From Eubacteriales bacterium (GTDB taxonomy: Bacteria > Bacillota > Clostridia > Oscillospirales > CAG-272), in contig JBGVPY010000062.1 of the NCBI GenBank assembly GCA_045127235.1, forward strand, positions 992-64,991: 64,000 bases of DNA, written 5' to 3'. This document shows positions 6,897-32,388 of this stretch, piece by piece. How positions within the stretch are numbered: position 1 is the stretch's first letter; the number at the start of each line of letters is the position of its first letter. The notes beneath the pieces are model-generated. The model was not told where the DNA came from and did not search any database. It worked only from the letters and a program-made list of their open reading frames with translations. Position numbers and translations under genes: made by a program.

Positions 6897-7042
6897 AATA
6901 CGTAACACCAAAATATGAAAGCATTCTTATAGCAACGAAAGACGTTGTAACCGCTTCAACATCAGCCCAAAAATATGAAGTTGAACAAAACAACGACGGA
7001 AGCGGCAATGTTATAATGAGAGCATTAGACTTATTTAAATAA
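6893..7042 (+). CDS. conserved 49-aa small protein, cassette copy 1 (not in ORF track)
   Basis: MKYVTPKYESILIATKDVVTASTSAQKYEVEQNNDGSGNVIMRALDLFK. Its ATG overlaps the P1 stop (caATGA). SD GAGGTG lies 5 nt upstream inside the P1 tail, and the stop sits 8 nt before the terminator. Four paralogs all have identical length. Confidence 0.75.
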   Translation: MKYVTPKYESILIATKDVVTASTSAQKYEVEQNNDGSGNVIMRALDLFK

Positions 7043-7050
7043 AACATAAA

Positions 7051-7082
7051 CCCGTGCAGATTTCTCTGCACGGGTTTTGTTT
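7051..7082 (+). terminator. rho-independent terminator of cassette 1
   Basis: cccgtgcag/ctgcacggg stem followed by ttttgttt. Confidence 0.8.
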
Positions 7083-11761: not shown

Positions 11762-11911
11762 ATGAAATACGTAACGCCAAAATATGAAAATGCAATTATA
11801 GAAACAAAAGATATTATAACCGCCTCAACCAACAAGTTTGAAATCCAAAATGATAATAACATCGAAGGCAAAGGCAATATCATAATGAACGCATTAGACA
11901 TCTTTAAATAA
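11762..11911 (+). CDS. conserved 49-aa small protein, cassette copy 2 (not in ORF track)
   Basis: MKYVTPKYENAIIETKDIITASTNKFEIQNDNNIEGKGNIIMNALDIFK. SD GAGGTG 5 nt upstream, 13 nt after the P2 stop, terminator follows. Confidence 0.75.
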   Translation: MKYVTPKYENAIIETKDIITASTNKFEIQNDNNIEGKGNIIMNALDIFK

Positions 11912-11918
11912 AGTAAAA

Positions 11919-11947
11919 ACCGTGCAGAGAAATCTGCACGGTTTTAT
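11919..11947 (+). terminator. rho-independent terminator of cassette 2
   Basis: accgtgcag/ctgcacggt stem followed by tttat. The stem sequence is related to the cassette 1 terminator. Confidence 0.75.
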
Positions 11948-13070: not shown

Positions 13071-14792
13071 ATGCTAATACCAAGACCGGAGCATCCAAAT
13101 CCCCAATTTGAAAGAGAAGATTGGGTGAATTTAAACGGAGAATGGGAATTTGAGCTTGACCGCGGTGTTAGCGGTCGTGATAGAAAATTCTACGAAAGAG
13201 AGCATCTTGATAATAAAATCATAGTGCCATTTTGTCCTGAAAGCGTGCTTTCAAAAATAGGTAACACAGATTATCTTAATTGTGTGTGGTACTTGAAAAA
13301 GGTACATATTAAGAAATGCAACAAAAGAGTTATTCTTCATTTTGGCGCAGTTGATTACGAAAGCTATATTTATGTTAATCACAAAGAGGCTTATCACAAT
13401 ATAGGTGGATATGTTGGTTTTGAAGTGGATATTACCGATTATGTTATATTTGGTAAGGAAAATACAATTACCGTATGCGCCATTGACGGACATCCAAACG
13501 GAAAGGCTTCAGGTAAACAAAGCGAAAACTACTATTCAATAGAATGCTGCTACACTCGTACAACAGGTATTTGGCAAACAGTTTGGCTTGAATATGTAGA
13601 TAAAAATTATTTAAAATCTGTAAGATACTACACCTCAATAGAGGACAAAAGCATTCAAATAGAGATAGAAACCGTTGGAAACGCCGTATTTAATGCGGTA
13701 GCCACATACAAAAATAAAAACGTAGGCGAGGTAAGTGGCAAGCTAAAAAGCGGTATTAGTCGCTTAACGCTTTATTTAAGTGAGCTTCATTTATGGGAAG
13801 CAGGCAAGGGCAGGCTTTACGACCTTGAATTAACCTATGGAAATGATAAAGTAAAAAGCTATTTCGGTATAAGAACAACCGCCTTTGATAGCAAAAATTA
13901 TCTTTTAAACGGAAAGCCTTTGTTCCTTCGTACTGTCCTTGACCAAGGCTACTACAAAAACGGAATTTATACTGCTGAAACGGATGAAGAACTAAAAAGA
14001 GATATCATCTTGTCATTAGAAGCAGGCTTCAACGGAGCAAGGCTACATCAAAAGATTTTTGAGCCGAGATTTTTATACCATTGTGATAAAATGGGCTATC
14101 TTGTATTTGGCGAAAGTGCTAACGCCCACCTCTACTACTGGGACATGAATCAGCTAACTCCATTTTTACTTGAATGGCAAAGAGCGATAAAAAGGGACTT
14201 TAACCATCCTTCAATTATTGGTTGGTGTCCACTTAACGAAACATGGGATTGGGATAATAAGCATCAAAATGACGACTTTATAAGAGCATTATATTATTCA
14301 ACAAAAGCAATGGACACAACCCGCCCTTGTATAGGCACAAGTGGTAATTATCAGGTTGTTTCCGATATTTATGACCTTCACGATTACATACAGGATGTAA
14401 AAGATTTTGAAGAAATTTATCTTGCAAGCACTCAAAAAGAAATGCTTGAAAATTATGATAAAACTCATAGTGGCGTGTCAAAATATCAAAAATCAACAGA
14501 TTACTGCAATATGGCATTATTTCTTAGCGAATATGGTGGCATAAGATGGGATATTGACGGAGTTGAAGGCGGTTGGGGCTACGGAAATGCACCGAAAACC
14601 GAGGAAGAGTTTTTGCAAAGATTTGAAGGCTTGACAAATGCACTTATAAGCTGCCCGTATGTGTGTGGCTTTTGCTATACTCAGCTTTACGATATAGAGC
14701 AAGAGGCAAACGGCTTATATACATATGAAAGAAAGCCAAAATTTGATATACAAAAAATCAAATCAATAATACAAGCGAAAAGAAATCGCTGA
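13071..14792 (+). CDS. glycoside hydrolase family 2 enzyme (beta-galactosidase/beta-glucuronidase/beta-mannosidase type)
   Basis: PRPEHPNPQFEREDWVNLNGEWEF sugar-binding start, GIWQTVWLE, and NHPSIIGWCPLNE with the acid/base Glu. ATG 13071 is preferred over GTG 13059 because of SD AGAGGTG spacing. Confidence 0.75.
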   Translation: MLIPRPEHPNPQFEREDWVNLNGEWEFELDRGVSGRDRKFYEREHLDNKIIVPFCPESVLSKIGNTDYLNCVWYLKKVHIKKCNKRVILHFGAVDYESYIYVNHKEAYHNIGGYVGFEVDITDYVIFGKENTITVCAIDGHPNGKASGKQSENYYSIECCYTRTTGIWQTVWLEYVDKNYLKSVRYYTSIEDKSIQIEIETVGNAVFNAVATYKNKNVGEVSGKLKSGISRLTLYLSELHLWEAGKGRLYDLELTYGNDKVKSYFGIRTTAFDSKNYLLNGKPLFLRTVLDQGYYKNGIYTAETDEELKRDIILSLEAGFNGARLHQKIFEPRFLYHCDKMGYLVFGESANAHLYYWDMNQLTPFLLEWQRAIKRDFNHPSIIGWCPLNETWDWDNKHQNDDFIRALYYSTKAMDTTRPCIGTSGNYQVVSDIYDLHDYIQDVKDFEEIYLASTQKEMLENYDKTHSGVSKYQKSTDYCNMALFLSEYGGIRWDIDGVEGGWGYGNAPKTEEEFLQRFEGLTNALISCPYVCGFCYTQLYDIEQEANGLYTYERKPKFDIQKIKSIIQAKRNR

Positions 14793-14887: not shown

Positions 14888-16699
14888 ATGAAAAAGAAAC
14901 TATTGATAGCCTTATTTATAGTTGTTTTTGCGTGTGTTCTCTCATTTACAGTTTGCGCATCAAACGAGGTAACATTAGTAGGTGGAGAAAAGGTTGACTT
15001 TGAGACCGTTTTTAAGGTTGGTAAAAGCGGTGGAGTTGATAATGTTGTAACCGGTTTTAACACAGGCTACAACAATAATAGCATGACAGATGTAATCTTC
15101 CCTGACTACCTTGCAGGAATTGAGTGCAACGGACTTTTTGGCAAATATGCAAATCCGGCATCAACAACCATCAAAACTCTTACATTTGAATCAACAGACG
15201 AGTTTTTTATCAGTGGAGATAACATTTTCTCTGGAATTCCAATCACAAAGGTAACCTTTAATCCTAACTGTGTAGTGGAAATGAGAAAGGGCAACTTTTC
15301 AGGTTGTACAAGTCTTACAGAAATAACTTTTCCAAAGTTTAGAAAGCTATCATCAAATGCCTTTGCAAACTGCTCTAATATGGTAGCCACTAACTCAATT
15401 GTTTTTGTGGAGGGCATGACCGAAATTGGTGGCGATGCATTTAATGGCTGCAGTAGTCTTAACGGAACTATTGTTTTTCCATCAACTTTAACAACAATAA
15501 AAGACGAGGTGTTTAGAGGTACAAGTATAGAAGCGTTTGACTTTAGCAAGTGTGCGAATTTAAGTAGTATTAGTCAGGCTGCATTTACTCAGTGCGATTC
15601 ACTTACCACTATCGATATGAGTGCTTGCGTAGGATTGACAAGCTTGAGTAATAATTTTGCCGAAAACTGTGATGAACTAATTAGTGTAATTTTGCCACCT
15701 AATTTGGAGTCTATACCTTATAAGGCTTTTGCTCATTGCTATAAAATGCAATCAATCGTACTCCCTGCAAGCATGAAAACCGTAGCTGATGAGGCATTCC
15801 ACACAGCAAGAAAAAATCAAGATATAAAGACTTTTACGGTATATGTTCAAGGTAATGTTGTATTCCATGAGAAATATTCATTCCGTGATTCAAGTGCAAA
15901 AATTGAATTCGTTTTGATTGGAAATGGTGTTACTGCACAAAGTTTTAAGGCTGCAAATACTTATTCGGCTATTACAGGTGCTACCGTAGTTGATTATGTA
16001 GGAGGCGAAAATCCATGGACTTATGTTCCCGGTCAAGCAATAACAAGCCACACTATCGTAGATAACTACTGTAAGCCACTTGCGTTAACAGGAGAGCATT
16101 TGTCTGATGCAAATCCATGCGTAATTAACTGTTCAAGCTGTGGATTAGTATCAGCAAAGGAAAATCCTGTTCATACTGTATCGTCATCTATCGCATACGC
16201 AAACGGATATGACAATGTTGGAGTTAAAACTATAATTTGTACCAATAAGGGTTGTAGTCATAAGGAAACGGTTGAGGTAAAAGAGCTCTTTGTTTGCCAA
16301 GGCTATTCAGCTCCTGAAAAGGGCAGCGGTGGAATTACAATAGGATTTACCATAAACAACCAAGCAATTAAAGAATATGAAACTTCAACAGGAAAAACCT
16401 TAAAATACGGCGCGTTTGCGGTAGCAAAGTCTAAGCTAGGTACAAACGATATTTTTAGCAAAGATGGCACAGTAGCAGACTATGCTATTACTGCTGAAAT
16501 CATTTCTTATGAATTTTATTCCTTTGATCTTAAAATTGTAGGCTTTACAGATGATTACAAAGATACGAAGCTTGCTCTAGGTGCTTATGTAATTACAACC
16601 GACGGCAAGACTAACGAATATTCATATATTCAAGAAGGCGCGCCTATACAAAACGAAAAATATGCATTTATCTCATATGGCGAAATTATGAATGCATAA
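14888..16699 (+). CDS. P3: secreted BspA-type LRR protein with Cys-knuckle and shared C-terminal module
   Basis: Signal peptide MKKKLLIALFIVVFACVLSFTVCAS, LRR_5-like repeats, CVINCSSC ... CTNKGC, module at 16286-16696. Confidence 0.85.
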   Translation: MKKKLLIALFIVVFACVLSFTVCASNEVTLVGGEKVDFETVFKVGKSGGVDNVVTGFNTGYNNNSMTDVIFPDYLAGIECNGLFGKYANPASTTIKTLTFESTDEFFISGDNIFSGIPITKVTFNPNCVVEMRKGNFSGCTSLTEITFPKFRKLSSNAFANCSNMVATNSIVFVEGMTEIGGDAFNGCSSLNGTIVFPSTLTTIKDEVFRGTSIEAFDFSKCANLSSISQAAFTQCDSLTTIDMSACVGLTSLSNNFAENCDELISVILPPNLESIPYKAFAHCYKMQSIVLPASMKTVADEAFHTARKNQDIKTFTVYVQGNVVFHEKYSFRDSSAKIEFVLIGNGVTAQSFKAANTYSAITGATVVDYVGGENPWTYVPGQAITSHTIVDNYCKPLALTGEHLSDANPCVINCSSCGLVSAKENPVHTVSSSIAYANGYDNVGVKTIICTNKGCSHKETVEVKELFVCQGYSAPEKGSGGITIGFTINNQAIKEYETSTGKTLKYGAFAVAKSKLGTNDIFSKDGTVADYAITAEIISYEFYSFDLKIVGFTDDYKDTKLALGAYVITTDGKTNEYSYIQEGAPIQNEKYAFISYGEIMNA

Positions 16700-16713
16700 G
16701 CAATGAGGTAAAA

Positions 16714-16863
16714 ATGAAATACATTACCCCAAAATATGAAAATGCAAGCATTTTAGCAAAGGATATTATAACCGCCTCAAAAGGTAAGTTTGAAATCCAA
16801 CACGACCTTAATGAACAGGGCAAGGGCAATATCATAATGAATGCATTAGATATATTTAAATAA
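16714..16863 (+). CDS. conserved 49-aa small protein, cassette copy 3 (not in ORF track)
   Basis: MKYITPKYENASILAKDIITASKGKFEIQHDLNEQGKGNIIMNALDIFK. SD GAGGTA, 14 nt after the P3 stop. Confidence 0.75.
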   Translation: MKYITPKYENASILAKDIITASKGKFEIQHDLNEQGKGNIIMNALDIFK

Positions 16864-16898
16864 TTAAAAGCCGTGTGGAATTTTCCACACGGCTTTTA
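16729..16898 (+). repeat. dispersed near-identical DNA repeat (small ORF plus terminator), partner at 21750-21919
   Basis: Colinear at a constant offset of 5021 nt. By eye there are only about 2 mismatches. Identity stops right after the terminator. Confidence 0.85.
16869..16898 (+). terminator. rho-independent terminator of cassette 3
   Basis: agccgtgtgg/ccacacggct stem followed by tttat. Identical to the cassette 4 terminator. Confidence 0.8.
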
Positions 16899-16972
16899 TG
16901 GTGCTTATAAGACTTATAAAATATCATATAAAATAAAAAACATTTATTAATATGCAAAGCACAAAGAACCTT

Positions 16973-17713
16973 TTATATAAATTTTTCCTTATACTGTGGG
17001 AATTTATCGGAGATATCTCTTTCTGATACGATCAAATCAATATCCTTTAATGTGCATACGGTATTAAGAAATGGCTCACCGATTTTTTGCGAGTTTAGGA
17101 GTAAAACTGATTTTTTTGAGCATTCAATCATTGCTTTGCTTATTTGGTTTTCTGCAACGGAGTTGTCCGTAAGCTTTCCATCGGGAGTTAGTGATGAAAC
17201 AGAGAAAAAGCAAATATCAGCATTAAATTTTCTTATAAATTCCTCAGCAAGAGTGCCTACATACCCAAAGGAGGTTTTTGATGCCTCGCCACCTGAAACA
17301 AATGTTTTTATTCCTGTTTTTGCGAGAAGAAATGATGCCTTGGTGCTATTGGTAATTAAAATAATTGAGCTTTTGGAGCTTAAATGCTTTAAAAGATGAA
17401 GGCATGTTGATGAAGCATCAACCATAATAGTGTCGCCATCCTTAATTAAATCAAGACATTTTTGCGCAATGCAGTCCTTTTCCTCAACAAATTTAGTTTC
17501 GCGAAGCTCTTGTGGAGTGCCCTCCCATTGAATACTGTTAAAAACCGCTCCGCCCGGCGTTCTTATAATTTTTTTGCCTTCTGCTAGTGATTTTAAATCT
17601 CTACGCACCGTAGGTGCGCTTACAAAAAGATGGGTGCAAAGCTCCTCGATTGTTGCCTCACGGTTTTGGCGCAAATATTCAAGTATTATTTTCTCTCTAT
17701 CCTTAAATGACAT
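16973..17713 (-). CDS. DeoR-family transcriptional regulator
   Basis: HTH (EELCTHLFVSAPTVRRDLKSL) plus a DeoR C-terminal sensor domain. Divergent from P4. Confidence 0.85.
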   Translation of the reverse strand: MSFKDREKIILEYLRQNREATIEELCTHLFVSAPTVRRDLKSLAEGKKIIRTPGGAVFNSIQWEGTPQELRETKFVEEKDCIAQKCLDLIKDGDTIMVDASSTCLHLLKHLSSKSSIILITNSTKASFLLAKTGIKTFVSGGEASKTSFGYVGTLAEEFIRKFNADICFFSVSSLTPDGKLTDNSVAENQISKAMIECSKKSVLLLNSQKIGEPFLNTVCTLKDIDLIVSERDISDKFPQYKEKFI

Positions 17714-17798
17714 TTTGACCTCTTTGTTATCATAATGATTAGAAAATGTATGTGTTTAATCACAAATTGAGCATTTTGTTCAGGATTTTTTAAAAATA

Positions 17799-17827
17799 TT
17801 GACAAATTTGCTCAAATGTATTATAAC
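17799..17827 (+). promoter_or_regulatory. promoter for P4 with an overlapping imperfect inverted repeat (candidate DeoR operator)
   Basis: TTGACA, 17 nt spacer, TATAAC. The repeat aaattgagca (17764-17773) / tgctcaaat (17810-17818) brackets the -35 element. Confidence 0.5.
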
Positions 17828-17860
17828 ATAATTAGATACTAAAAATCAAGGAGAGATTTT

Positions 17861-20800
17861 ATGAAAAGCATTTACAAAAGATTCCTTTGTCTTATTCTTG
17901 CTTTAATAATGGCGCTTGGCGTAATTCCAAGCGTAGCGTTTACCGCTTTTGCAAGCGAGGGCGAGGTGACGGAGGAGACAGAGACTCTTGTTGACAGAAC
18001 AAAGGAGCCTGTCACCATTACAAACGGCGATTATTCGCTTACGGTTAATAAAACCGTATTTGAGGTTGGAGAGCCAATTTACGTTTCCGCAACGGGAGCC
18101 CACGCCCAATCCTGGGTTGGACTTTACAGCACGACGGGCGTAAGCGCGGGAGATTCATCCCTCGTTTGGAAAAACTTATCAAGCGCAGGTCAGGGCGTTA
18201 CCTTTGATCTTGTGTCCCAATACGACAAGCAAGAGGATAGCACCTTTGAATTTGTAGACGGTGCGCTTCCCGAGGGCGAATATATTATTCGTTTATTCGG
18301 AGATGGCTCATCAAATGCAAGCTCAGTTAAGGCGCTTGTTCACATTAAGGTTGGTAATCCACCTGATATTTCAGGCGAGCAAGGTGTACTTGAAATTGAG
18401 GACAGAGCAGTATCAAGCGGCGATCCCGTTATGGTTAGCGCAGATCTTTTATATAACGATACGTGGGTAGGCGTTTATGCTTACGGCAACTACTCAAAGA
18501 GCTCGTTGTTATGGTATTGGGTAAGAACTCCGGGCGATGGCGTTGCTTATAACGCCGTATCCGGCAGAACTCTTTCAGGCGGCGCGTATTTAGTAAGACT
18601 TTGTCCGCACGATGGCTCAGGCTTTGGTAATGACATTGCAAATGCACTTGTAATCGTTGAGGATGAATACAATGTATCATACCTTAGCAGAATGGCGGTC
18701 GTTGATGATAACACAGGTGGCACAGAGGATGTCGGCGGTGGCACGGAAAATCCAGACACACCAGACACACCTGATACACCTGATACACCTGATACACCGG
18801 TTACACCAGACACACCGGTTACACCTGATAGCACCGTTACATTTGAGGAAAGCAGAAGCGCAGTTAAGCTTGCAAACGGCGAGTTTGAGCTTTGTGTAAA
18901 CAAAACCGTATTTAAGGTAGGCGAGCCTATTTTAGTTTCAGCTAAGGGACCTAATGTCCTTGACTGGATTGGAATTTATAGAGTACAGGACAACGCCTCA
19001 ATTAAGTATCAGTTTGTTGATAATGTAGGCGATGGCGTTTGGTTTGATATCACTAATAATTACATAGAGGGCGGGAAATACAAGGAGTACGGCTCACTTC
19101 CCGAGGGCGAATATGTAATCCGCTTACAATCAAATAATAGCGACTATCTTGAGGGCAACCGTGCTCTTGTTAAAATTAAAATCGGAAATCCTGATACTGA
19201 TAAAGCATTTGGAAATAGTGAACTTTTAAGCACAGACAAAAACATATATAAGCCAGGCGAGGCAATTATGGTAACTCCTTCTATGGTTGAGGGACATAAT
19301 GACTCATGGGTTGGCATTTACGGATTTGACTACTTCCACAAGGGTGGCTCTATTCGTTGGGAGTGGGTAAAAACCAATGGCGACGGCGTTGCGTTTGATA
19401 TTACAGGCGGTAATACATTTGCTCCTGGAGTGTATCTAATTCGCTTGCTTCCATACGACACAGGCGATATGAATACAGTTGTTGCTTACAAAATGGTAAT
19501 TATTGAGGGCGATACGGTCGTTTCCTATGAATCCGTAGTAACAGATAAAAACCTTGGCATAGCCCCTCCAACGTACGAGGGAAATAGCAGCGTTACAGTT
19601 TCAAACGATACACACTCACTTACAGTAAATAAAACAAAATTTGATGTGGGCGAGGAAATTTTAGTTTCCGCAGTAGGCGTTCACGCTAAGGACTGGATCG
19701 GTATTGCACAGCGTAATAATAATGAAGCAACAATCCGTTGGTATTACATTGCAGATGTAGGTAACGGAGAGAAATACGATATTAGAAGCGCGCCAAACAT
19801 CGGAGGAAACCTTGGTCATTTAAAGGATTTACCCGAAGGACCTTATACAATCTACCTTGTTGAAAAGGACGGATATTTAAAGAACGGCTATACCTTTAGC
19901 ATAAATGTTTCAATAGGTGACATAGAGGATGCAGATAACGGCAAAACAGAGGGCGGTACACAAACAGGCGGTAACACACCTGCTTATGGAGTTATTCCGC
20001 CAATAAGCGCAGTATATGTACCAAGCATAAACGGATATGCGGCTGGCACAGCCACCGTTACTATGCCAATAGAAGCCCTTAACTCCCATAACATCCTTAT
20101 GTATTGGGGAAATGAAAACGGTATTCTTGAGGGATATACTCCCCATGCGCGCTTTAAGGCTACAAGCACAACCGCATCATATACCTTTACTAAGAGCGTT
20201 ATTATTCCTAAGGATGCTACTAAGCTTTTAATTTATTCACAAAAGAGCTCAACAGGCGAAATGTCAAGTGAGTATGTAACAGTTGAATTGCCACAAGGCT
20301 CACAAATGAACATTACAAGTAATAAGATTACATCATTCTATGCAATTAGTGATGTTCACATCGGCTCTGCAAACGGAGCAAAGCATTTTAAGCTTATGCT
20401 TAAGGATGCGGTTTCATTAAATCCTAATGGCGTAGCTATCTTTATAGCAGGCGATATTGCAGATAACGGCAGAGAGGATCAATATGCACAAGCAATCGCA
20501 ATTCATAGTGAGGTAATGACAGAAATGGGCGTAAATGCAAGTGATTACCCAATGTTCTTTGCAATCGGCAACCACGATTACCCTGCCGCTACAAGTGCAT
20601 TCCTATCATATGCAGTTTTACCTGATGGCACTCATCCAACAGATACATGCTACGATTTTTGGTTTAACGGCTATCATTATATTATGCTTGGTAGTGACAG
20701 TCCATCAGGACTTAATGCAACATTTACCGAGGAAACACTTGCATGGCTTGATACAACACTTGCACAAGGCAGAGATGAAGGCAAGCCAACATTCATTTTC

Positions 20801-21718
20801 CTACATCAGCCTATATTTAATACAGTTTCAGGTAGCTTACCTGGAGAGGGCTGGCACGGAGTTACAAATGAGGATGCATTCAAGGCGGTAATCAGTAAGT
20901 ATCCTGAAATTATAATGTTTAACGGACACACCCACTGGGAAATGAATTCTAAAGGCAATATGTTTGATGCCACAGAGGAGCTTCCAATAAACATCTTTAA
21001 CTGCGCATCAGTTAGCTATTTATGGAGTGGCTTTAATAAGACAACAGGCGAGCATCTTGACGGTAGCCAAGGCTACTATGTTGAGATTTACAGCGACAGA
21101 GTAGTTGTAAAGGGACGCGATTTTGTAAATGCTAAGTGGATTGCATCTGCACAATATTGTGTTGAATTACAACAAGGCACTGATGAAATAGAGCATAATT
21201 ATGAAATTAAGGATATTACCTATTCAAACGGATATGGTAAGGCAGGAAAAATAACATATGAATGCTTAGATTGTCATATAATCAAGGAGGAAATTGCTCC
21301 TGCGCTTATTGAATGTCTTGGATATTCAATGCCTGAGGATGGCAGAGGACAAATTGCAATCGGCTTTGACATAAACAGCGAAGCAATTAAGGAGTACGAA
21401 GAGATAACAGGCAAAACCTTAAAATACGGTGCATTTGCAGTAGCACAGGAAAAGCTTGGCACAAGCGATATTTTTAGCGAAAACGGCACAGTAGCAAACT
21501 TTGCAATTGCAGCTGAAATCACATCTTATGAATTTTCTTCCTTTGAGCTTAAAATCACAGGCTTTACGGATGAATACAAGGACGATAAGCTTGCTCTTGG
21601 TGCTTATGTAATAGCAACTGATAAGGACATCACAGAATATTCATATATTCAACATGGCGAGCCTAAACAAAACGAAAAGTATGTATTTACTTCATATGAC
21701 GAGGTTGTAAATTCATAA
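17861..21718 (+). CDS. P4: secreted protein with five WxGxY beta-sandwich-like repeats, a PDT linker, a calcineurin-like metallophosphoesterase domain and the shared C-terminal module
   Basis: Signal peptide. Repeats contain VNKTVFxVGEPIxVSA...DWIGIY...LPEGEYxIRL. Metallophosphoesterase motifs ISDVHIG, GDIADNG, GNHD, LHQP, GHTHW. Module at 21305-21715. Confidence 0.85.
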   Translation: MKSIYKRFLCLILALIMALGVIPSVAFTAFASEGEVTEETETLVDRTKEPVTITNGDYSLTVNKTVFEVGEPIYVSATGAHAQSWVGLYSTTGVSAGDSSLVWKNLSSAGQGVTFDLVSQYDKQEDSTFEFVDGALPEGEYIIRLFGDGSSNASSVKALVHIKVGNPPDISGEQGVLEIEDRAVSSGDPVMVSADLLYNDTWVGVYAYGNYSKSSLLWYWVRTPGDGVAYNAVSGRTLSGGAYLVRLCPHDGSGFGNDIANALVIVEDEYNVSYLSRMAVVDDNTGGTEDVGGGTENPDTPDTPDTPDTPDTPVTPDTPVTPDSTVTFEESRSAVKLANGEFELCVNKTVFKVGEPILVSAKGPNVLDWIGIYRVQDNASIKYQFVDNVGDGVWFDITNNYIEGGKYKEYGSLPEGEYVIRLQSNNSDYLEGNRALVKIKIGNPDTDKAFGNSELLSTDKNIYKPGEAIMVTPSMVEGHNDSWVGIYGFDYFHKGGSIRWEWVKTNGDGVAFDITGGNTFAPGVYLIRLLPYDTGDMNTVVAYKMVIIEGDTVVSYESVVTDKNLGIAPPTYEGNSSVTVSNDTHSLTVNKTKFDVGEEILVSAVGVHAKDWIGIAQRNNNEATIRWYYIADVGNGEKYDIRSAPNIGGNLGHLKDLPEGPYTIYLVEKDGYLKNGYTFSINVSIGDIEDADNGKTEGGTQTGGNTPAYGVIPPISAVYVPSINGYAAGTATVTMPIEALNSHNILMYWGNENGILEGYTPHARFKATSTTASYTFTKSVIIPKDATKLLIYSQKSSTGEMSSEYVTVELPQGSQMNITSNKITSFYAISDVHIGSANGAKHFKLMLKDAVSLNPNGVAIFIAGDIADNGREDQYAQAIAIHSEVMTEMGVNASDYPMFFAIGNHDYPAATSAFLSYAVLPDGTHPTDTCYDFWFNGYHYIMLGSDSPSGLNATFTEETLAWLDTTLAQGRDEGKPTFIFLHQPIFNTVSGSLPGEGWHGVTNEDAFKAVISKYPEIIMFNGHTHWEMNSKGNMFDATEELPINIFNCASVSYLWSGFNKTTGEHLDGSQGYYVEIYSDRVVVKGRDFVNAKWIASAQYCVELQQGTDEIEHNYEIKDITYSNGYGKAGKITYECLDCHIIKEEIAPALIECLGYSMPEDGRGQIAIGFDINSEAIKEYEEITGKTLKYGAFAVAQEKLGTSDIFSENGTVANFAIAAEITSYEFSSFELKITGFTDEYKDDKLALGAYVIATDKDITEYSYIQHGEPKQNEKYVFTSYDEVVNS
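18752..18829 (+). repeat. in-frame tandem 9-bp repeats encoding a (PDT/PVT)n linker
   Basis: ccagacaca ccagacaca cctgataca cctgataca cctgataca ccggttaca ccagacaca ccggttaca cctgat. Confidence 0.9.
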
Positions 21719-21875
21719 ATAACGAGGTGCAAAAATGAAGTACATTACACCAAAATATGAAAATGCAAGCATTTTAGCAAAGGATATTATAACCGCCTCA
21801 AAGGGTAAGTTTGAAATCCAACATGACCTTAATGAACAGGGCAAGGGCAATATCATAATGAATGCATTAGATATA
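21305..21875 (+). repeat. dispersed high-identity DNA repeat (module 3' part, spacer and small ORF), partner at 26253-26823
   Basis: Colinear at a constant offset of 4948 nt with no indels and scattered, mostly third-position differences. Confidence 0.85.
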
Positions 21876-21884
21876 TTTAAATAA
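21735..21884 (+). CDS. conserved 49-aa small protein, cassette copy 4 (not in ORF track)
   Basis: Protein identical to copy 3. SD GAGGTG, 16 nt after the P4 stop. Confidence 0.75.
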   Translation: MKYITPKYENASILAKDIITASKGKFEIQHDLNEQGKGNIIMNALDIFK

Positions 21885-21889
21885 TTAAA

Positions 21890-21919
21890 AGCCGTGTGGA
21901 ATTTTCCACACGGCTTTTA
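21890..21919 (+). terminator. rho-independent terminator of cassette 4
   Basis: agccgtgtgg/ccacacggct stem followed by tttag. Confidence 0.8.
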
Positions 21920-21995
21920 GAATAAAGAAAATATCTATTTACCATATGATATTATGTTTTTTGAATATTAAATCATACATTTATATCGAAAACAC

Positions 21996-22026
21996 TTGAC
22001 ATTAACCTTAGGTAATAGTTTAATAT
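21996..22026 (+). promoter_or_regulatory. MerR-type promoter with a 19-bp spacer and an internal palindrome
   Basis: TTGACA (21996-22001), 19 nt spacer, TAATAT (22021-22026). The spacer contains ACCTtAGGT. Confidence 0.55.
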
Positions 22027-22038
22027 TATTATAAGGGG

Positions 22039-23766
22039 GTGGCTATTTTGAAAATAAATGATGTAGAAAAAATAACAGGACTTTCAAAAAAAGCTATTCG
22101 TTTGTACGAAAGCAACGGATTAGTTACCGTAGCAAGAGATGAAAACGGATATCGAAACTATTCAAATATAAATGTTGATGACCTAAAAGCAATCAAGCTT
22201 TTAAGAACCATAGGTGCTTCTATTTCCGATATTAAGCTTTATATGTTCGGCGTTATTACTAAAGATGAGCTGATAAATAAGCGCAAATCAGAGATATTAA
22301 AGGAAAGCGGCAAAAACTCTGAGAAATATCATATTTGCGAAAGCATTTTAAGCAATAACTCGGCGGATGATTTAATCCATTTTGACTTTGATGAAAGTAA
22401 TGAGGCAGAAATAAAAAATTATGGCACGCTTATTGTAGGCATAGATATTGGAACAACAACAGTAAGTGCCTCTATATATGATATTGATAACAAGGAGCAA
22501 ATTGAAGCATATTCGCTTGAACATAACTCCGGCGTAGATATAGAAGAATTTTCAGAGCAGGATGTGTCTGCTATTTTAGGAAAAGCAAAAAAGCTTCTTT
22601 TCCATATACTTGATACATATAAGGGAGTCGTATCAATTGGCATAACAGGCCAAATGCACGGAATTGTGTATTTAGATAATAAACTTAATCCCGTGTCAAA
22701 TCTTATAAATTGGCAGGATAAAAGAGCGGATAAAGTATTAAATAATGGCAAAACAACATGTCAAATGATATATGATATTACTGAAGAGCATATTTCAACA
22801 GGCTATGGTATTGCAACGCATTATTATAATATGTTAAATAACATAGTTCCTAAAAACGCCACATCTGTATGTAGCATAATGGACTTATTCGCTATACAAA
22901 TTTGTGGTATTGAAAAACCGGTAACCCATACCTCAGTAGCTGTAAGCTTAGGAATTTTTGATGTACAAAAATCGGAATTTATGTATGATAAGCTGTTATC
23001 ATTAGGAATTGAAAGGAGCTTTTTACCAAGCGTAACTGATAAAAGTATAATAATAGGTAAATGCAGAGATATCCCTGTTAGTATTCCAATAGGCGATAAT
23101 CAAGCAAGCTTTTTAGGGTCAGTTGACAATAACAATGATACAATACTTGTAAATATGGGTACAGGCTCACAGGTAAGCATGGTAGGCGAGTATCAAAACA
23201 CATCAGGAGATATTGAAACACGCCCCTTTATTGAGGGCAAGTATCTTGTGTGTGGCTCTGCATTATGCGGAGGACTGGCATATCAAATGCTTGAGGAATT
23301 TTTTAGAAGCTATACACAAAGCTGCAAAATGAGCGATATGCCTCAGTATAAAATAATGAACCAAATCGCCAAGGATGGATACCAAAAAGGCGAAAGAGGA
23401 CTTTTAGTTGATACTTCATTTTGCGGTAAAAGAAGCAACCCGCATTATCGTGGCTCCATTTTAGATATAGACAAGGATAAATTTACCCCTTCTAATCTTA
23501 TTTTAGGAGTGTTAAGAGGTATGTGTGCCGAGCTTTACGAATTATACGAGCAATTTTCTAAAAAATGCACTCATATAATAGCTTCGGGCGGAGCGGTAAA
23601 GAAAAACGAGGTTTTACAGCTGCTAATCAAGGACATTTTTTCAATGGAAGTAACGGGAAATACATTCAAAGAAGAAGCAGCAACAGGCGCGGCGCTGTTT
23701 TCGGCGCTTGCTCTTGGAAAAATAGACTATAAAAACGGCTTTTCCGACTACATAAGAAAAAGGTAA
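22039..23766 (+). CDS. MerR-family HTH fused to an FGGY-type carbohydrate kinase
   Basis: N-terminus INDVEKITGLSKKAIRLYESNGLV...GYRNYS (MerR). From about aa 130: VGIDIGTTTVSASIYD, GITGQMHGIVYLD, GDNQASFLGS (sugar kinase fold). The start may be TTG 22048, which sits 8 nt after AAGGGGG. Confidence 0.7.
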   Translation: MAILKINDVEKITGLSKKAIRLYESNGLVTVARDENGYRNYSNINVDDLKAIKLLRTIGASISDIKLYMFGVITKDELINKRKSEILKESGKNSEKYHICESILSNNSADDLIHFDFDESNEAEIKNYGTLIVGIDIGTTTVSASIYDIDNKEQIEAYSLEHNSGVDIEEFSEQDVSAILGKAKKLLFHILDTYKGVVSIGITGQMHGIVYLDNKLNPVSNLINWQDKRADKVLNNGKTTCQMIYDITEEHISTGYGIATHYYNMLNNIVPKNATSVCSIMDLFAIQICGIEKPVTHTSVAVSLGIFDVQKSEFMYDKLLSLGIERSFLPSVTDKSIIIGKCRDIPVSIPIGDNQASFLGSVDNNNDTILVNMGTGSQVSMVGEYQNTSGDIETRPFIEGKYLVCGSALCGGLAYQMLEEFFRSYTQSCKMSDMPQYKIMNQIAKDGYQKGERGLLVDTSFCGKRSNPHYRGSILDIDKDKFTPSNLILGVLRGMCAELYELYEQFSKKCTHIIASGGAVKKNEVLQLLIKDIFSMEVTGNTFKEEAATGAALFSALALGKIDYKNGFSDYIRKR

Positions 23767-23775
23767 AATTTATTT

Positions 23776-24981
23776 ATGAAGGATATTAAAATCGAATTTG
23801 AAATTGATAATCTAAATTTAAATATTGTATCATATAAAAATGAGCGAAAATCATTTGAAGCACAGAGTGCAGAATGCGAACTTTTGGTATCGTTTTGGTA
23901 TGATTATAGCGAAAAGCCGTTAAATCTATCATCAAGCATAAAAATAGGCGACTGTGTGTCGATAATTTTGCGCGAATACATAATTGAGTTATATGTAAAC
24001 AATGTGCTTGTAGATGAAAATTGGCAGTACGGTAAAGGATATTTTGAGCTTGGCGATAAAATTGAAGGAAGCGAAAAGGTCACCGTATCTTATTATAACC
24101 AAGCAAAAGAGGCAGAGCCAAGCATTATATCATCATTTGAAAATGCAGAGGGGTGGCGACCAGAAAACGGCGTTTTTGTAGGCGACTGTATGCCGTACAG
24201 AAAAAATGATGAATACCATGTTTTATACCTAAAGGACCGCCGCCATCACGGAAGCAAATGGGGAATGGGCGCTCATCAGTGGGAGCATATTTCCACAAAG
24301 GACTTTAAAAAGTGGTACGTTCATCCAATGGCAGTTCCCATTACTGAAAGCTGGGAAGGCTCAATTTGCACAGGCTCATGGATAGAAAAAGACGGCAAGG
24401 AGTATCTCTATTACACGGTAAGACGACCAAAGGGACTTCCTGCAATAATTAGCCGTAGTGTGTCAGAGGATGGCTACCATTTTAAAAAGGATAAGAGCTT
24501 CGGTTTTACTATATCCGAAAAATTTAACGGACCCATAGCAAGAGACCCAAAGGTTATAAAGGATGATAGCGGAATTTATCATATGCTTTTAACAACCGTT
24601 TTGGTTAAGGAAAATTTAGGCTGCTTGGCTCACTATATTTCCTCTGACCTTGAAAGGTGGCAAGAGGCGGAAAGTCCTATTTACATTCACGAAAACAGCG
24701 ACCACCCCGAATGTCCCGACTACTTCAAATATAAAGGCAGATACTATTTGATTTTCAGTATCAGAGGCAGAGCAAGATATTTAGTGTCCGATAAGCCATT
24801 TGATGACTTTAAAATGATAGATGACACATTAATCCCCTGTGCGGGAGTGCCAAAATGCGCACCTTGGAATGATAAGCTGATTTTTACAGGCTTTAAGCCA
24901 ATAGATGGCTATGCAGGCACAATGACATTTAAATCCGCCACCGCCGATGAAAACGGTAAGCTTATTTTTGAAGATTTATAA
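23776..24981 (+). CDS. GH32-like five-bladed beta-propeller glycosidase (fructosidase-like) with an extra N-terminal domain
   Basis: RDP motif (ARDPKVI) and ECP motif (HPECPDYF) in GH32 order. The nucleophile region is divergent (FVGDCMPY instead of WMNDPNG). Confidence 0.55.
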   Translation: MKDIKIEFEIDNLNLNIVSYKNERKSFEAQSAECELLVSFWYDYSEKPLNLSSSIKIGDCVSIILREYIIELYVNNVLVDENWQYGKGYFELGDKIEGSEKVTVSYYNQAKEAEPSIISSFENAEGWRPENGVFVGDCMPYRKNDEYHVLYLKDRRHHGSKWGMGAHQWEHISTKDFKKWYVHPMAVPITESWEGSICTGSWIEKDGKEYLYYTVRRPKGLPAIISRSVSEDGYHFKKDKSFGFTISEKFNGPIARDPKVIKDDSGIYHMLLTTVLVKENLGCLAHYISSDLERWQEAESPIYIHENSDHPECPDYFKYKGRYYLIFSIRGRARYLVSDKPFDDFKMIDDTLIPCAGVPKCAPWNDKLIFTGFKPIDGYAGTMTFKSATADENGKLIFEDL

Positions 24982-25076
24982 TATATTTTTACAAAATTTG
25001 CAAAAAACTCTTGACTTTGACCCAAGGGAAGGGTTTATACTTAAAATGGTAAAAATACAAATTAAGGAGAAAGAGA

Positions 25077-26666
25077 ATGAAGAAGAAACTATTTTTAACA
25101 GCTGTTATGGTGTTTATTTTTGTTATGATGCTTGCTTTTGCGGTATCCGCTGATTCAGTTCATAACGAAAACACAGTTGATTACAACTCAAAGGTTACAC
25201 TTAATGACGGGACTGTGCTTCCGATATACGATGAAAATAAGGATGCGCTTATTTGGTATATCGACGGAAAAGACGAAAGCGGAAACCCAATTTATTCATC
25301 CGCCCCTACCGACAAGGTTGCTTATTGGTACACAGAGAGTTGGAATGAGGTGACGGGCTTTGATGTAGTGCTTGAAAACGGAACGAAAATTGAAAGAAAT
25401 AACGTGGTAGTAGTTAACATGATGGATGACGATGTTGTAAAGAACGCCGGCCCTGGTACTAAGTATTACGGAGAACCTGTTAAAGATTTCAAAAATATGA
25501 TTAATTCTAGAAAAAATCTTGAATACTGCTTTTTAAGACTTGATACAAGTACTATCAACAATGGTACCTTTGCAGGATGTCCTAAATTGAAGTACATAAA
25601 TTTAGAAAGTTTGACAAATCTTAAAAGAATGGCACAACACAGTCAATTTTCCGGATGTACAAGTTTGTTTGACGGACAGGTGCTCGACCTTACAAAAACT
25701 CAATTATACGAATTTGAGGGCAACGAAACATTTAAAGGCGTTCCGGTAAAAGGAATAAAATTCCCGGAAACAATGAAAAAGATAGGTTCGGGAAGCACCT
25801 TTGCTAACTGCTCAAAACTTGAATTTATTTCGGTAGGTAACAAGTTAACGACAATGGGTGGCGAAGCATTTAGTGGTTGCACATCACTCAAAGCAATTTA
25901 TTACGTTGGCACACAAGACGAATTAAATGCTTCACCAATCAATAGAGTAGTTACTGATGCTACAATAAAATCATACAATGAATACAAATCACTTACCGAT
26001 ATAAGCGGAGTGTATGTAGTATATAATTACAGTAGATGTATTGCTTTTAATAACGGTGTTCACGGCGAGGCGATTTTAGCAAATGCTTGTGTAGGCAATT
26101 GCTTGGTATGTGGTGATGCAATGGTTAACCATAACGAAGTAAAAAATCTTTCCGTAACAATTACATATAAAAACTACGGCATTAACGGCGAAAAAGTAAC
26201 TGTTTGTAACAACAAAGATTGTGGATACAAAGAAACAAAAGTTGCTCCCGCACTTATTGTTTGTCGTGGTTACTCTGCACCTGAAAATGGCAGAGGTGGA
26301 ATTGTAATCGGCTTTGATATAAACAGCGAAGCAATCAAAGATTACGAAACAACAACAGGCAAAACCTTAAAATACGGTGCTTTTGCAGGAGCACAGGAAA
26401 AGCTTGGCACAAGCGATATTTTTAGCGAAAACGGCACAGTAGCGAACTACGCTATTGCCGCTGAAATCGCATCTTATGAATTTTCTTCCTTTGAGCTTAA
26501 AATCACAGGCTTTACAGATGAATACAAGGATACAAAGCTTGCTCTTGGCGCTTATGTAATAGCAATCGATAAGGACATCACCGAATATTCATATATTCAA
26601 CATGGCGAGCCTAAACAAAACGAAAAGTATGTATTTACTTCATATGATGAGGTTGTAAATTCATAA
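25077..26666 (+). CDS. P5: secreted BspA-type LRR protein with Cys-knuckle and shared C-terminal module
   Basis: Signal peptide MKKKLFLTAVMVFIFVMMLAFAVSA, LRR_5-like units, CVGNCLVC ... CNNKDC, module at 26253-26663. Confidence 0.85.
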   Translation: MKKKLFLTAVMVFIFVMMLAFAVSADSVHNENTVDYNSKVTLNDGTVLPIYDENKDALIWYIDGKDESGNPIYSSAPTDKVAYWYTESWNEVTGFDVVLENGTKIERNNVVVVNMMDDDVVKNAGPGTKYYGEPVKDFKNMINSRKNLEYCFLRLDTSTINNGTFAGCPKLKYINLESLTNLKRMAQHSQFSGCTSLFDGQVLDLTKTQLYEFEGNETFKGVPVKGIKFPETMKKIGSGSTFANCSKLEFISVGNKLTTMGGEAFSGCTSLKAIYYVGTQDELNASPINRVVTDATIKSYNEYKSLTDISGVYVVYNYSRCIAFNNGVHGEAILANACVGNCLVCGDAMVNHNEVKNLSVTITYKNYGINGEKVTVCNNKDCGYKETKVAPALIVCRGYSAPENGRGGIVIGFDINSEAIKDYETTTGKTLKYGAFAGAQEKLGTSDIFSENGTVANYAIAAEIASYEFSSFELKITGFTDEYKDTKLALGAYVIAIDKDITEYSYIQHGEPKQNEKYVFTSYDEVVNS

Positions 26667-26682
26667 ATAATGAGGTGTAAAA

Positions 26683-26832
26683 ATGAAGTACATTACACCA
26701 AAATATGAAAATGCAAGCATTTTAGCAAAGGATATTATAACCGCCTCAAAGGGTAAGTTCGAAATCCAACACGACCCTAATGAACAGGGCAAGGGCAATA
26801 TCATAATGAATGCTTTGAATATTTTCGGATAA
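26683..26832 (+). CDS. conserved 49-aa small protein, cassette copy 5, with an altered C-terminal end (not in ORF track)
   Basis: MKYITPKYENASILAKDIITASKGKFEIQHDPNEQGKGNIIMNALNIFG. SD GAGGTG. The last residues and the downstream DNA diverge from copies 3 and 4, and the usual terminator is missing. Confidence 0.7.
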   Translation: MKYITPKYENASILAKDIITASKGKFEIQHDPNEQGKGNIIMNALNIFG

Positions 26833-30225: not shown

Positions 30226-32388
30226 ATGAAAAAGAAAATTCTTTTAATTGCTATGATGGTATCAATACTTGCTTGTTTTTTTGCTCTTTCTGTTAGTGCT
30301 GAAACAATCACTTACGATGGGCAAGAAATTGAGCTAGTTAACAATCTTGGCGACCCATCATGGTACACAGGCACAACAGCATCTAAAATTACAGACAAGG
30401 AGTCTATCGTTATTTTAAAGGATGCTAACGGCAGCTTGACCGCTTATCCGTCATATTATGTTTTTAGATACTTAATCGAGGGCTCAACTGTACGTGTAAA
30501 TTGGGCTGACCAAAAGGGAGTTGATTATTCTTTCATAAATGAAAATGATGGTAAGAATTATCAAGCAGGAAGCCTATACTATGTGGAGCTTCCATATGGA
30601 ATAACTCTTTTGACAAATGCTAATCTTTGGGGCGATGGTAAAAAAGAGCCTAATGTAGTTGAGTTTGTTTTTCCCGACTCTGTTACTCTAATTCAAAATA
30701 ATGCTTTCACTCAAGTAAGCGCGTGCAAAAAGGTTACTATGTCGAAAAATGTTAAGACAATAGAAATGTGGTCGTTTTACAATTCAGCAAATCTTGAAAC
30801 CGTTGTTTTCCCAAAGGATTGTGCTGTCAAGAGCATAGACAAGGGTACTTTTAGTGGATGCACAAATTTAGCAAATATAAATCTTGAAAGCTGCACAAGC
30901 TTAAAAGCACTTGGCGATGGAGCATTTCAAGGCTGTAGATCTATTGACAGACTTGCATTGCCTGATTCTTTAGAGACAATAGGTTTTCAAGCACTTTATG
31001 ATTTAGGAGAAATAGAGCTTGCAAGCGACTATTTACCAAAGAGCTTAAAAACAGTTGGCCAATACTTTTTAAATAGCTGTAAGCTGAAAAATAACATATT
31101 ATATTTTCCACAAGGCTTTACATCTCTTACTGCAAGATATTGCTTTGCAGGTAGCTTTGAGCCTGAAACATCGTTAACGCTTGTTTTCCTTGGCAAAATG
31201 ACAAGCGTAAATTTATCAGATGCTTCCCTTACGACATTTTTAGACAAATGCTCACAAAAGCCGATAAAATTAGTGTTTGCGCAAAACGAACATAGCGACC
31301 TTTCTGGACCAATTGTTTCTACTGTTAATTATAACGGACAAAAGGGATTTATCGCTATCTCAAAGGACGGTAGCTCTCTTTATACAAATCAAGAGGGAAC
31401 ACTAAAAGTAAGCTTTGAAAATACTAACTATTACAACCTTACAGGCATTGGAGCTGATGCAAACGGCAACATTATTCATAGTGTTGGAAATTCTCCAACA
31501 GAAATAATTTTCTGTGGAGGAGATAGCGTGGAAATAAGCTATACCATAAGATGCAATTACACAGATAAGGGTTGGTACAGATTCCATACAACAAGCGAAG
31601 TGTATGATATGAGCACACACGAGATAGATGGCGTTCATTATAACGACAGAGTATATCAAAAGGGTAACTGTGGTTATGATGAAAAAACTACAAATACATG
31701 TGTAATTTGTAAGCTTCAAAGCGTGGTAGTAGGCGAAAAATCAACAGGCGACCATACCTATGAGGACGATTTTAACTGTGAAACTGCACTTGCCTGTGAT
31801 GTTTGCCTAAAAACACTTAAGGAAGCACTTGCACACGATATTAAGACAACGATTTTGTACGAAAAAGGTTATACTAGAGAGGGCTTAAAAACAGTTGCGT
31901 GTCAAAATGAAGGATGTAATCATAGCAACGGAGCGGAAAAGACAGAAGCGCTCTTTACCTGCCTTGGCTATTCAGCACCGGAAGATGGCAGAGGCGGAAT
32001 TGCAGTAGGCTATACTATAAACAATGAAGCTATCAGAGAATATGAAAAAGCAACAGGCAAAGCTTTAAAATACGGAGTATTTGCAGTGTTAAAGGATAAG
32101 CTCATCACAGATGATCTCTTCAATGCAAAGGGAGAAGTGGCAAACGGAGCAATCAGCGCAGAAATTTCAGGCAACAATTATGCTGCGGTTGAGCTAAAAA
32201 TAACCGGTTTTACAGATGACTATAAGGATACCAAGCTTGCAATGGGCGTATATGTGGCTGTAACAGATGGCGAAACAGCCGAGTATTCCTATCTCCAGTC
32301 CGGTACACCTAATGAAAATGAAAAATACTCATTTATTTCATATAATGATATTGTAGGAAATCCTGCAACAGATAAAGAGGAATCATAA
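30226..32388 (+). CDS. P6: secreted BspA-type LRR protein with an extended Cys-rich region and the shared C-terminal module
   Basis: Signal peptide MKKKILLIAMMVSILACFFALSVSA, LRR_5-like units, multiple CxxC pairs, module at 31951-32385. Starts only 32 nt after the XRE-ARH gene. Confidence 0.85.
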   Translation: MKKKILLIAMMVSILACFFALSVSAETITYDGQEIELVNNLGDPSWYTGTTASKITDKESIVILKDANGSLTAYPSYYVFRYLIEGSTVRVNWADQKGVDYSFINENDGKNYQAGSLYYVELPYGITLLTNANLWGDGKKEPNVVEFVFPDSVTLIQNNAFTQVSACKKVTMSKNVKTIEMWSFYNSANLETVVFPKDCAVKSIDKGTFSGCTNLANINLESCTSLKALGDGAFQGCRSIDRLALPDSLETIGFQALYDLGEIELASDYLPKSLKTVGQYFLNSCKLKNNILYFPQGFTSLTARYCFAGSFEPETSLTLVFLGKMTSVNLSDASLTTFLDKCSQKPIKLVFAQNEHSDLSGPIVSTVNYNGQKGFIAISKDGSSLYTNQEGTLKVSFENTNYYNLTGIGADANGNIIHSVGNSPTEIIFCGGDSVEISYTIRCNYTDKGWYRFHTTSEVYDMSTHEIDGVHYNDRVYQKGNCGYDEKTTNTCVICKLQSVVVGEKSTGDHTYEDDFNCETALACDVCLKTLKEALAHDIKTTILYEKGYTREGLKTVACQNEGCNHSNGAEKTEALFTCLGYSAPEDGRGGIAVGYTINNEAIREYEKATGKALKYGVFAVLKDKLITDDLFNAKGEVANGAISAEISGNNYAAVELKITGFTDDYKDTKLAMGVYVAVTDGETAEYSYLQSGTPNENEKYSFISYNDIVGNPATDKEES

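Follow-up and report, generated by a model that had tools for sequence, protein, structure and literature searches.

How can neighbouring genes whose N-terminal parts are unrelated, or only distantly related, come to share 3' ends that are in places nearly the same? This question is raised by a 64,000-nt stretch of DNA from an uncultured gut bacterium of the Clostridia type (Eubacteriales, contig JBGVPY010000062.1), which is referred to here, at its full length, as the window. It contains an array of six tandem units, all on the + strand, each with a secreted-protein gene at its end (P1 to P6). Most of these genes carry a 3' block of ~0.6 kb composed of a 142-codon module, a spacer bearing a ribosome-binding site (RBS), a 49-codon small open reading frame (ORF) and a hairpin terminator; the part of the gene that precedes the module is called the passenger. 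The blocks are direct repeats lying ~5 kb apart. Based on the results given below, we suggest, with a probability of roughly 80%, that general homologous recombination between these blocks has left short conversion tracts and has also produced crossovers that delete, duplicate and re-join units.

Identity tracts and breakpoints in the 3' blocks

The 3' ends of cassettes 4 and 5 (21305-21875 and 26253-26823) are colinear over 571 nt at a fixed offset of 4948, with 50 mismatches (91.2% identity) and no indel, as the original prediction had stated. At the same offset the identity is ~25-35%, the random level, upstream of ~21290 and downstream of ~21875. The differences had been described as scattered. 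They do exist, but they are not evenly spread: 27 are packed into the first 116 nt, whereas the following 460 nt have only 23, a step from 23% to 5% at ~21406 (maximum chi-square test, permutation P about 5e-4). The stretch 21731-21811 is free of differences. The near-identity proposed for the small ORF and terminator of cassettes 3 and 4 was confirmed, with 2 mismatches in 170 nt (16729-16898 and 21750-21919, 98.8%) or 4 in 185 nt (16714-16898 and 21735-21919). The two small ORFs are 97% identical, and the identity stops exactly at the last base of the hairpin and T-run (16898, 21919). The more diverged version of the tract expected in P1 and P3 was also found, at 73% identity in the module and ~62% in the small ORF. 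As for the passengers, the claim that they are unrelated held at the DNA level but not for the ~60 residues directly upstream of the module, which form a Cys-rich sub-domain homologous across the paralogues in protein sequence and structure.

The relationships of P4 change along the block. P3 and P4 differ at 105 of 429 module positions (24.5%) versus 4 of 185 positions in the small ORF and terminator (2.2%; Fisher P about 1e-13). At third codon positions, the counts are 51 of 143 in the module versus 4 of 49 in the small ORF, and the two terminators, which are non-coding, are identical. Among the sites informative for P3, P4 and P5, 56 unite P4 with P5 between 21410 and 21803, against 7 that unite P3 with P4 and 9 of the remaining kind; between 21812 and 21919, 36 unite P3 with P4, against 0 for P4 with P5 and 1. 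The breakpoint thus lies within small ORF 4, where it adjoins the conserved stretch AAGTTTGAAATCCAA (nt 73-87 of the small ORF), immediately 3'. A Sawyer-type run test on the polymorphic sites of P1, P3, P4 and P5 gave a global P<1e-4 for P3/P4 and P4/P5, the concordant runs being longer than in all 10,000 permutations.

The steps are seen at synonymous and non-coding sites. The number of synonymous substitutions per site (dS) between P4 and P5 is 0.70, 0.17, 0.24 and 0 by segment, and that between P3 and P4 is 0.46-1.0 in the module versus 0.09-0.24 in the small ORF. Between P1 and P5, dS is 0.13 in module codons 41-90 and >0.7 on both sides; this middle segment of the P1 module is an older exchanged tract. 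In other pairs the matching segments have dS values from 0.5 to above 2, which indicates that synonymous sites are not generally constrained. Furthermore, the non-coding terminator and spacer are near-identical for particular pairs only. Uniform divergence along the paralogues, named in the original prediction as the opposing outcome, is rejected by the maximum chi-square and Fisher tests, the run test, the topology switch and the dS steps.

Orthologues and re-joined units in related genomes

Over 6717-31873, the window is colinear and 99.5% identical with an independent 75-kb scaffold that comes from a different sample (L019, L020) and has the same mosaic and the same identities between paralogues. 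In addition, the P3-DeoR and P4-MerR junctions of the window recur on many shorter contigs and samples. The array and its mosaic are therefore real and not an assembly artefact of the window.

A further comparison was made with the metagenome-assembled genome (MAG) JAZSHT01 (Eubacteriales), which belongs to a related species. Orthologue identity ranges from 75% to 100% along the loci. A patch of ~210 nt in P4 (21600-21811) is 74-90% identical to the MAG orthologue and 96-98% identical to P5 of the window, while its flanks are 97-100% identical to the MAG orthologue on both sides. Such a patch is a classic signature of short-tract gene conversion. Similarly, orthologous small ORFs are 91-95% identical versus 97% between the paralogous small ORFs 3 and 4. 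Identity with the MAG orthologue of P1 is 96-100% up to 6842 and drops to 52% over the final ~50 nt of the gene; the small ORF at this MAG locus is of another type (67% nucleotide identity) and the downstream sequence is unrelated. Segments closer to a paralogue than to the orthologue, abrupt breakpoints, and a signal at synonymous and non-coding sites were all observed; the paralogues have undergone concerted evolution.

Whole units are also found in other contexts. The region from P2 to P3 (8226-16745) is 92-93% identical in the same MAG and in contig L001 (L001 and L015), where it lies in another genomic context, and the homology stops inside small ORF 3. There, downstream of the P3 orthologue, ~40 nt from the 5' part of the small ORF persist as a decayed relic that has lost its RBS and ATG, and unrelated genes come next (a Na/Ala symporter and GroES/EL).

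Alternative junctions, which the original prediction had proposed to look for by comparing strains, were found in related strains and samples. In L030, the P3 module is followed by a hybrid small ORF, the P2 terminator and an AraC gene. The hybrid is of the P3 type to ~codon 29 and of the P2 type beyond, small ORF 2 being the donor type for its 3' half, and the crossover took place inside the 15-nt shared stretch AAGTTTGAAATCCAA. An unequal crossover, or a circle, between small ORFs 3 and 2 would give just this junction. Four samples (L031-L034) combine the P1 passenger with the 3' part of a P4/5-type module, a small ORF and P3-type downstream sequence. In L013, the P1 passenger is joined to a P4/5-type module end and small ORF, followed by sequence that matches no cassette of the window. 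Three samples (L025, L026, L007) have the P3 block joined to the downstream unit of P4, in L023 the P4 position is taken by a P4-type module with a different leucine-rich repeat (LRR) passenger, and L008 and L009 contain re-joins of P5 and P4. The junction positions are dispersed over >500 nt (21406, 21600, 21803-12, 6842, and within the module in L031 and L023).

Given these data, homologous recombination or gene conversion, as originally predicted, is borne out by the identity steps, the topology switch and the P4 patch; short-tract conversion alone is not sufficient, and part of the pattern is better seen as reciprocal or unequal crossover by which whole ~5-kb units are moved. The suggestion that the module and the peptide are homogenized as a pair had to be abandoned. 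The two are not co-inherited, since breakpoints lie between the module and the peptide gene as well as inside the latter, and the P1 locus has three peptide types in three genomes.

It should be noted that a DeoR gene upstream of P4 (window 17000-17860, MAG locus L014 200-1060) is ~75% identical between the two genomes, with 98-100% identity on both sides. This suggests allelic replacement of the gene by exchange between strains.

Mechanism and competing explanations

We suggest the following scheme. The 3' blocks would act as substrates for the general homologous recombination of the cell, for which a dedicated recombinase would not be needed. Non-reciprocal copying of short tracts (gene conversion, ~100-400 nt) would make segments of paralogues near-identical and leave sharp breakpoints. 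A crossover between blocks would instead delete, duplicate or re-join units with their regulator, glycosidase and passenger, giving strain-specific combinations of passenger, 3' end and downstream sequence. The two outcomes are complementary and not exclusive. A scan of the window proteins from the array, its flanks to ~40.2 kb, and 41327-43063 revealed no integrase, transposase or recombinase. The lack of a local recombinase gene, together with the dispersed breakpoints, makes general homologous recombination likely. RecA-type recombination as the enzymatic mechanism is an inference, as would be the direction of each transfer and any adaptive value.

Several observations weigh against this scheme or limit it. 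The alternative junctions come mostly from short-read metagenome contigs, and the joins in L007, L025, L026 and L009, which run across a near-identical tract of 170-185 nt, could be assembly chimeras. The joins in L030, L031 and L023 are much less likely to be artefacts because they are located in sequence that is non-identical between the window copies. The donor of the divergent patch in the MAG orthologue of P4 was not found, the best match being 88% identical, and exchange of alleles between strains, and not exchange within the genome, could account for some of the mosaic. Finally, no new event was seen in the blocks of two strains that differ by 0.5%, so the exchange is occasional and not rapid.

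The closest competitor retains recombination without short-tract conversion: whole units would be inserted, excised or duplicated via the small ORF and terminator repeats, or passengers replaced at recently duplicated ends. On this view, small ORFs 3 and 4 would be nearly identical simply because they are the two borders of a unit that was inserted. Strain variants do lose or re-join whole units exactly at the blocks, the P2-P3 block of L001 and L015 has its right end inside the small ORF, and the identity of small ORFs 3 and 4 reaches the very edge of homology at the terminator. However, inserting or deleting units cannot produce a patch of ~210 nt in P4 with orthologue-like flanks. The low-dS tract internal to the P1 module is likewise unexplained, and a stretch free of differences (21731-21811) is nested within a tract of 5% divergence. 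We therefore regard crossover as the only process to be improbable. A dedicated cassette system, in which the hairpin or small ORF would serve as a site for a recombinase encoded elsewhere (as in integron attC sites or shufflons) or in programmed antigenic variation, is very unlikely. The regularity of the array, the hairpins in one orientation, the oddly constant unit size (4869-5021 nt) and the different unit content of strains would fit it. Against it stand the missing recombinase, integrase and transposase among the scanned proteins, breakpoints spread over >500 nt with no single fixed core site, blocks that are alike in two 99.5%-identical strains, and six complete genes with their own starts and signal peptides, which leave no silent cassettes.

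Repeats collapsed or mis-joined, in the window or in the comparison contigs, could also imitate a mosaic. Assemblers do struggle here: module homologues and small-ORF contigs are very often cut off where a contig stops, and some junction contigs span a repeat longer than k=141. On the other hand, the whole array with the same mosaic is present on the independent 75-kb scaffold, and the window-type P3-DeoR and P4-MerR junctions occur in many samples. The L030 crossover took place in only 15 shared nt, the L031 switch lies in non-identical sequence, and the tracts in the window are 91-99% and not 100% identical, so they are not assembler copies; an artefact is thus highly improbable. Least credible of all is an origin without recombination, by purifying selection on the module and peptide or by an overlapping RNA or DNA element. 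The ratio of non-synonymous (dN) to synonymous change is in its favour, dN being far below dS in the module and small ORF, and so is an antisense ORF whose third codon positions coincide with those of the small ORF. Nevertheless, dS reaches 0.5 to above 2 in matching segments of other pairs, spacer and terminator are near-identical in particular pairs only, and the topology switches along the block; an Rfam scan of 4000-33000 gave no match.

Systems in which paralogues recombine are well known. In Neisseria pilE/pilS and Borrelia vlsE, one expression site and promoterless partial cassettes diversify the variable part of a protein at high frequency. Segmental non-reciprocal copying between paralogues yields mosaics there as it does here. 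In contrast, all copies in the window are complete, it is the conserved end that is exchanged, and no turnover is seen at 0.5% divergence. Antigenic variation from silent cassettes was ruled out by the six full-length ORFs with start codons and signal-peptide-like N-termini, and an integron or other site-specific array by the absence of a recombinase domain in the scanned window proteins and by junctions at many positions.

Two other systems are closer. In Helicobacter pylori, the 3' segments of babA/babB, sabA/sabB and homA/homB are in concerted evolution by RecA-dependent intragenomic gene conversion (PMC3960876, a review which cites Pride & Blaser 2002 and Talarico et al. 2012). The window genes resemble bab in that exported paralogues have divergent 5' and middle parts and 3' segments closer within than between genomes, and in that chimeric genes arise from non-reciprocal exchange with no dedicated recombinase. 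Unlike the tandem genes of the window, the bab loci are dispersed, and their 3' part encodes a Gram-negative outer-membrane beta-barrel, whereas here it is a soluble-looking beta-sandwich followed by a 49-codon ORF and a terminator in a Clostridia-type genome. In the tandem lpl cluster of lipoprotein-like genes in Staphylococcus aureus, every copy has a conserved segment at which homologous recombination takes place, and strains differ by rearrangements; the unit that is kept intact begins 3' of this segment in one gene and extends into the variable 5' portion of the following gene (Tsuru & Kobayashi 2008, PMC2568036). The features of this model, a conserved segment in each copy and re-joined units in strains, were found here in tandem Firmicute paralogues (the variants on short-read contigs), with units spanning adjacent genes as in L025, L030 and L031. 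The lpl segment is central and the units are single genes of ~0.8 kb, in contrast to a 3' end with a small ORF and terminator and units of ~5 kb, which carry regulators and glycoside hydrolases. The window proteins are not evidently lipoproteins, and no homology to Lpl lipoproteins was found in Pfam and NCBIfam scans of the six proteins. The likeness to bab and lpl is in mechanism only, without homology to either family. The process is thus of a known, textbook kind, namely homologous recombination between paralogous 3' ends, while the gene family is new.

It is a rather doubtful idea that the block has been selected as a 'homology handle' for swapping ~5-kb units, each with a regulator, a glycoside hydrolase and a secreted protein that binds or acts as an enzyme, as cassettes within and between strains. 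If this were true, gut Clostridia would mix and match glycan-foraging or adhesion modules by recombination, the route of DNA transfer could set a size limit that shows in the uniform unit length (4.87-5.02 kb), and the peptide could be a functional partner of the module. Irrespective of this, the locus illustrates clearly how, in an uncultured Eubacteriales lineage of the gut, paralogues evolve in concert and units are shuffled. The shared blocks explain why short-read assemblies break here and why most database homologues are fragments at contig ends, and the 3' ends of these LRR proteins are no guide to their orthology. The locus also draws attention to two uncharacterized parts, a widespread C-terminal domain and a lineage-restricted, translationally coupled 49-amino-acid (aa) peptide.

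Modules, small ORFs and layout of the array

The features are collected in Table 1.

Table 1. Coordinates of the genes, modules, small ORFs, terminators and exchanged tracts (window positions unless a locus is named).
Feature	Position	Strand	Remark
P1 gene	4380-6896	+	LRR_5 passenger
P2 gene	8173-11748	+	internal module, then phosphodiesterase and LamG domains
P3 gene	14888-16699	+	BspA-type LRR_5 repeats
P4 gene	17861-21718	+	three internal repeats and metallophosphatase domain
P5 gene	25077-26666	+	BspA-type LRR_5 repeats
P6 gene	30226-32388	+	BspA-type LRR_5 repeats
P1 C-terminal module	6441-6896	+	repeat family; in-frame alignment
P1 module middle segment	6561-6710	+	dS to P4/P5 0.13-0.24; flanks 0.7 to saturation
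P2 internal module copy	9538-9963	+	~60% identical to other copies
P3 C-terminal module	16271-16699	+	24.5% divergent from P4 module (105/429)
P4 C-terminal module	21290-21718	+	repeat family; in-frame alignment
P5 C-terminal module	26238-26666	+	repeat family; in-frame alignment
P6 C-terminal module	31936-32388	+	most divergent terminal copy, 65-66% identical to others
P4/P5 high-identity tract	21406-21811 (counterpart 26354-26759)	+	maximum chi-square breakpoint
Small ORF 1	6893-7042	+	49 aa, divergent type; start overlaps P1 stop
Small ORF 2	11762-11911	+	3' of the LamG C-terminus of P2, not of a module
Small ORF 3	16714-16863	+	near-identical tract with cassette 4
Small ORF 4	21735-21884	+	contains breakpoint 21803-21812
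Recombination breakpoint in small ORF 4 (~codons 23-26)	21803-21812	+	informative sites switch from P4=P5 to P3=P4
Small ORF 5	26683-26832	+	homology with cassettes 3/4 stops at ~26814; altered C-terminus NALNIFG
Small-ORF relic after P6	32388-32420	+	RBS, ATG and last ~9 codons; MNAFDIFRTK*
Small-ORF relic after P3 orthologue	L001 13460-13500; L015 ~13700-13740
Terminator 1	7048-7077	.	bidirectional hairpin, 13-bp stem, A-run and T-run; between convergent genes
Terminator 2	11916-11945	+	hairpin
Terminator 3	16865-16898	+	hairpin and T-run
Terminator 4	21886-21919	+	hairpin and T-run

The family proved wider than originally described. The module (~142 codons) is common to all six genes, being terminal in five and internal in P2; P2 has a small ORF and terminator at its own 3' end, and P6 has a module followed by a relic. 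The P2 copy of the module shows no sign of recent exchange. In an exhaustive search (E <= 1e-3), 1,233 representatives of the module family were found (clusters at 50% identity), almost always at the C-terminus of proteins of 500-800 aa. The module had no significant match in Pfam or NCBIfam and none in a sequence profile search of the PDB. A first AlphaFold run with a 13-sequence alignment was too poor for use (predicted local distance difference test, pLDDT, 59). With a 72-sequence alignment that included the Cys-rich region, the last 204 residues of P3 reached a pLDDT of 90.7. In the predicted fold, a small beta sub-domain rich in Cys precedes a ~140-residue beta-sandwich with one helix. 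The best Foldseek matches in the PDB were generic sandwiches with template modelling (TM) scores <= 0.36, none of them convincing. The Cys-rich sub-domain and beta-sandwich (16085-16696, and the equivalent ends of P1, P4, P5 and P6) are a candidate new domain family of Clostridia LRR proteins. An autotransporter was ruled out, as the module has no Pfam match and is predicted to be a beta-sandwich and not an outer-membrane beta-barrel translocator. The low dN relative to dS indicates that the products of both the module and the small ORF are constrained. No relevant literature was found on the module or the 49-aa peptide.

All six proteins are encoded by full-length ORFs with their own start codons and have K-rich, hydrophobic N-terminal segments (6/6), taken by inspection as signal peptides, which suggest that P1-P6 are secreted. 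For the name 'surface proteins' given to them in the original prediction, only the signal peptides are evident; the surface location itself is an assumption, as no known anchor was found. Specifically, Pfam and NCBIfam gave no match to an LPXTG sortase signal, SLH, CWB2, LysM or other known wall anchor in the six proteins. The only domains found in them were LRR_5, phosphodiesterase, LamG and metallophosphatase; in P1, the Pfam match is LRR_5 and is confined to the passenger.

The 49-codon small ORF lies 3' of P1 to P5, starts with MKY[VI]TPKYE and has a GAGGTG RBS. Small ORF 1 is only 63% identical in nucleotides to small ORFs 3 and 4. Because a small ORF also follows the LamG end of P2, it is tied to the end of the gene, and to the module only loosely. 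In cassettes 1-4 a hairpin terminator follows the small ORF. Small ORF 5 has no family terminator downstream, and its variant end recurs in another sample (P0025/L029). The relic after P6, of which 22 of 27 nt match the 3' ends of full-length small ORFs, is the product of an internal deletion; locus L018 of the related MAG has a full-length small ORF. The relics after P6 in the window and after P3 in the MAG indicate that some module genes can do without the small ORF.

The small ORF is under purifying selection (for example, dN 0.11 and dS about 2 in the C-terminal half of P2/P3) and is predicted as a gene on many contigs. It forms 18 protein clusters only and was found in only one GTDB representative species, which is MAG JAZSHT01; the peptide is restricted to this lineage. 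It has no significant Pfam or NCBIfam match, and a search of the JGI metagenome collection with the peptide profile and an exact 29-mer gave no match. A hydrophobic antisense ORF lies over each small ORF, for example at 21713-21856, 16686-16835 and 26661-26804 (all on the - strand). These ORFs lack an RBS and vary in length, and they are probably not genes. Codon-position periodicity, tried as a test of the strand, gave no information, since the third codon positions of the small ORF and of the antisense frame coincide. We prefer coding on the + strand, based on the RBS, the conserved start and stop, and the gene calls.

All four terminators have a symmetric layout with an A-run, a stem and a T-run, and those of cassettes 1-3 lie between convergent genes. 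Based on this arrangement, they probably stop transcription from both directions.

Between the six genes there are regulators (DeoR, AraC, DeoR, MerR-FGGY and a helix-turn-helix (HTH)-ADP-ribosylglycohydrolase) and glycoside hydrolases (GH2, GH32 and DUF2961/GH172). Each unit thus resembles a small sugar-related locus that ends in a secreted protein. The small ORFs start at 6893, 11762, 16714, 21735 and 26683, at a near-constant spacing of 4869, 4952, 5021 and 4948 nt, despite intervening genes that are unrelated in number and kind. Exceptions to the ~5-kb spacing are unit 6 (~5.7 kb) and MAG locus L017 (~3.6 kb). The uniformity could be due to chance or to a size constraint on exchanged units.

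Just upstream of P1, an ORF (2869-4191) without a Pfam match encodes 440 aa with several hydrophobic segments and a glycine-rich C-terminal part containing GxGGxG-type repeats. Within P4, the internal repeat units begin at 18018, 18870 and 19599 (region 18018-19710), with a tandem linker of the PDTPDTP type at ~18700-18790. The MAG orthologue of P4 (L014 1061-4072) has 1003 aa versus 1285, i.e., it is shorter by 282 aa or ~one repeat unit, which suggests that the copy number of the P4 repeat varies.

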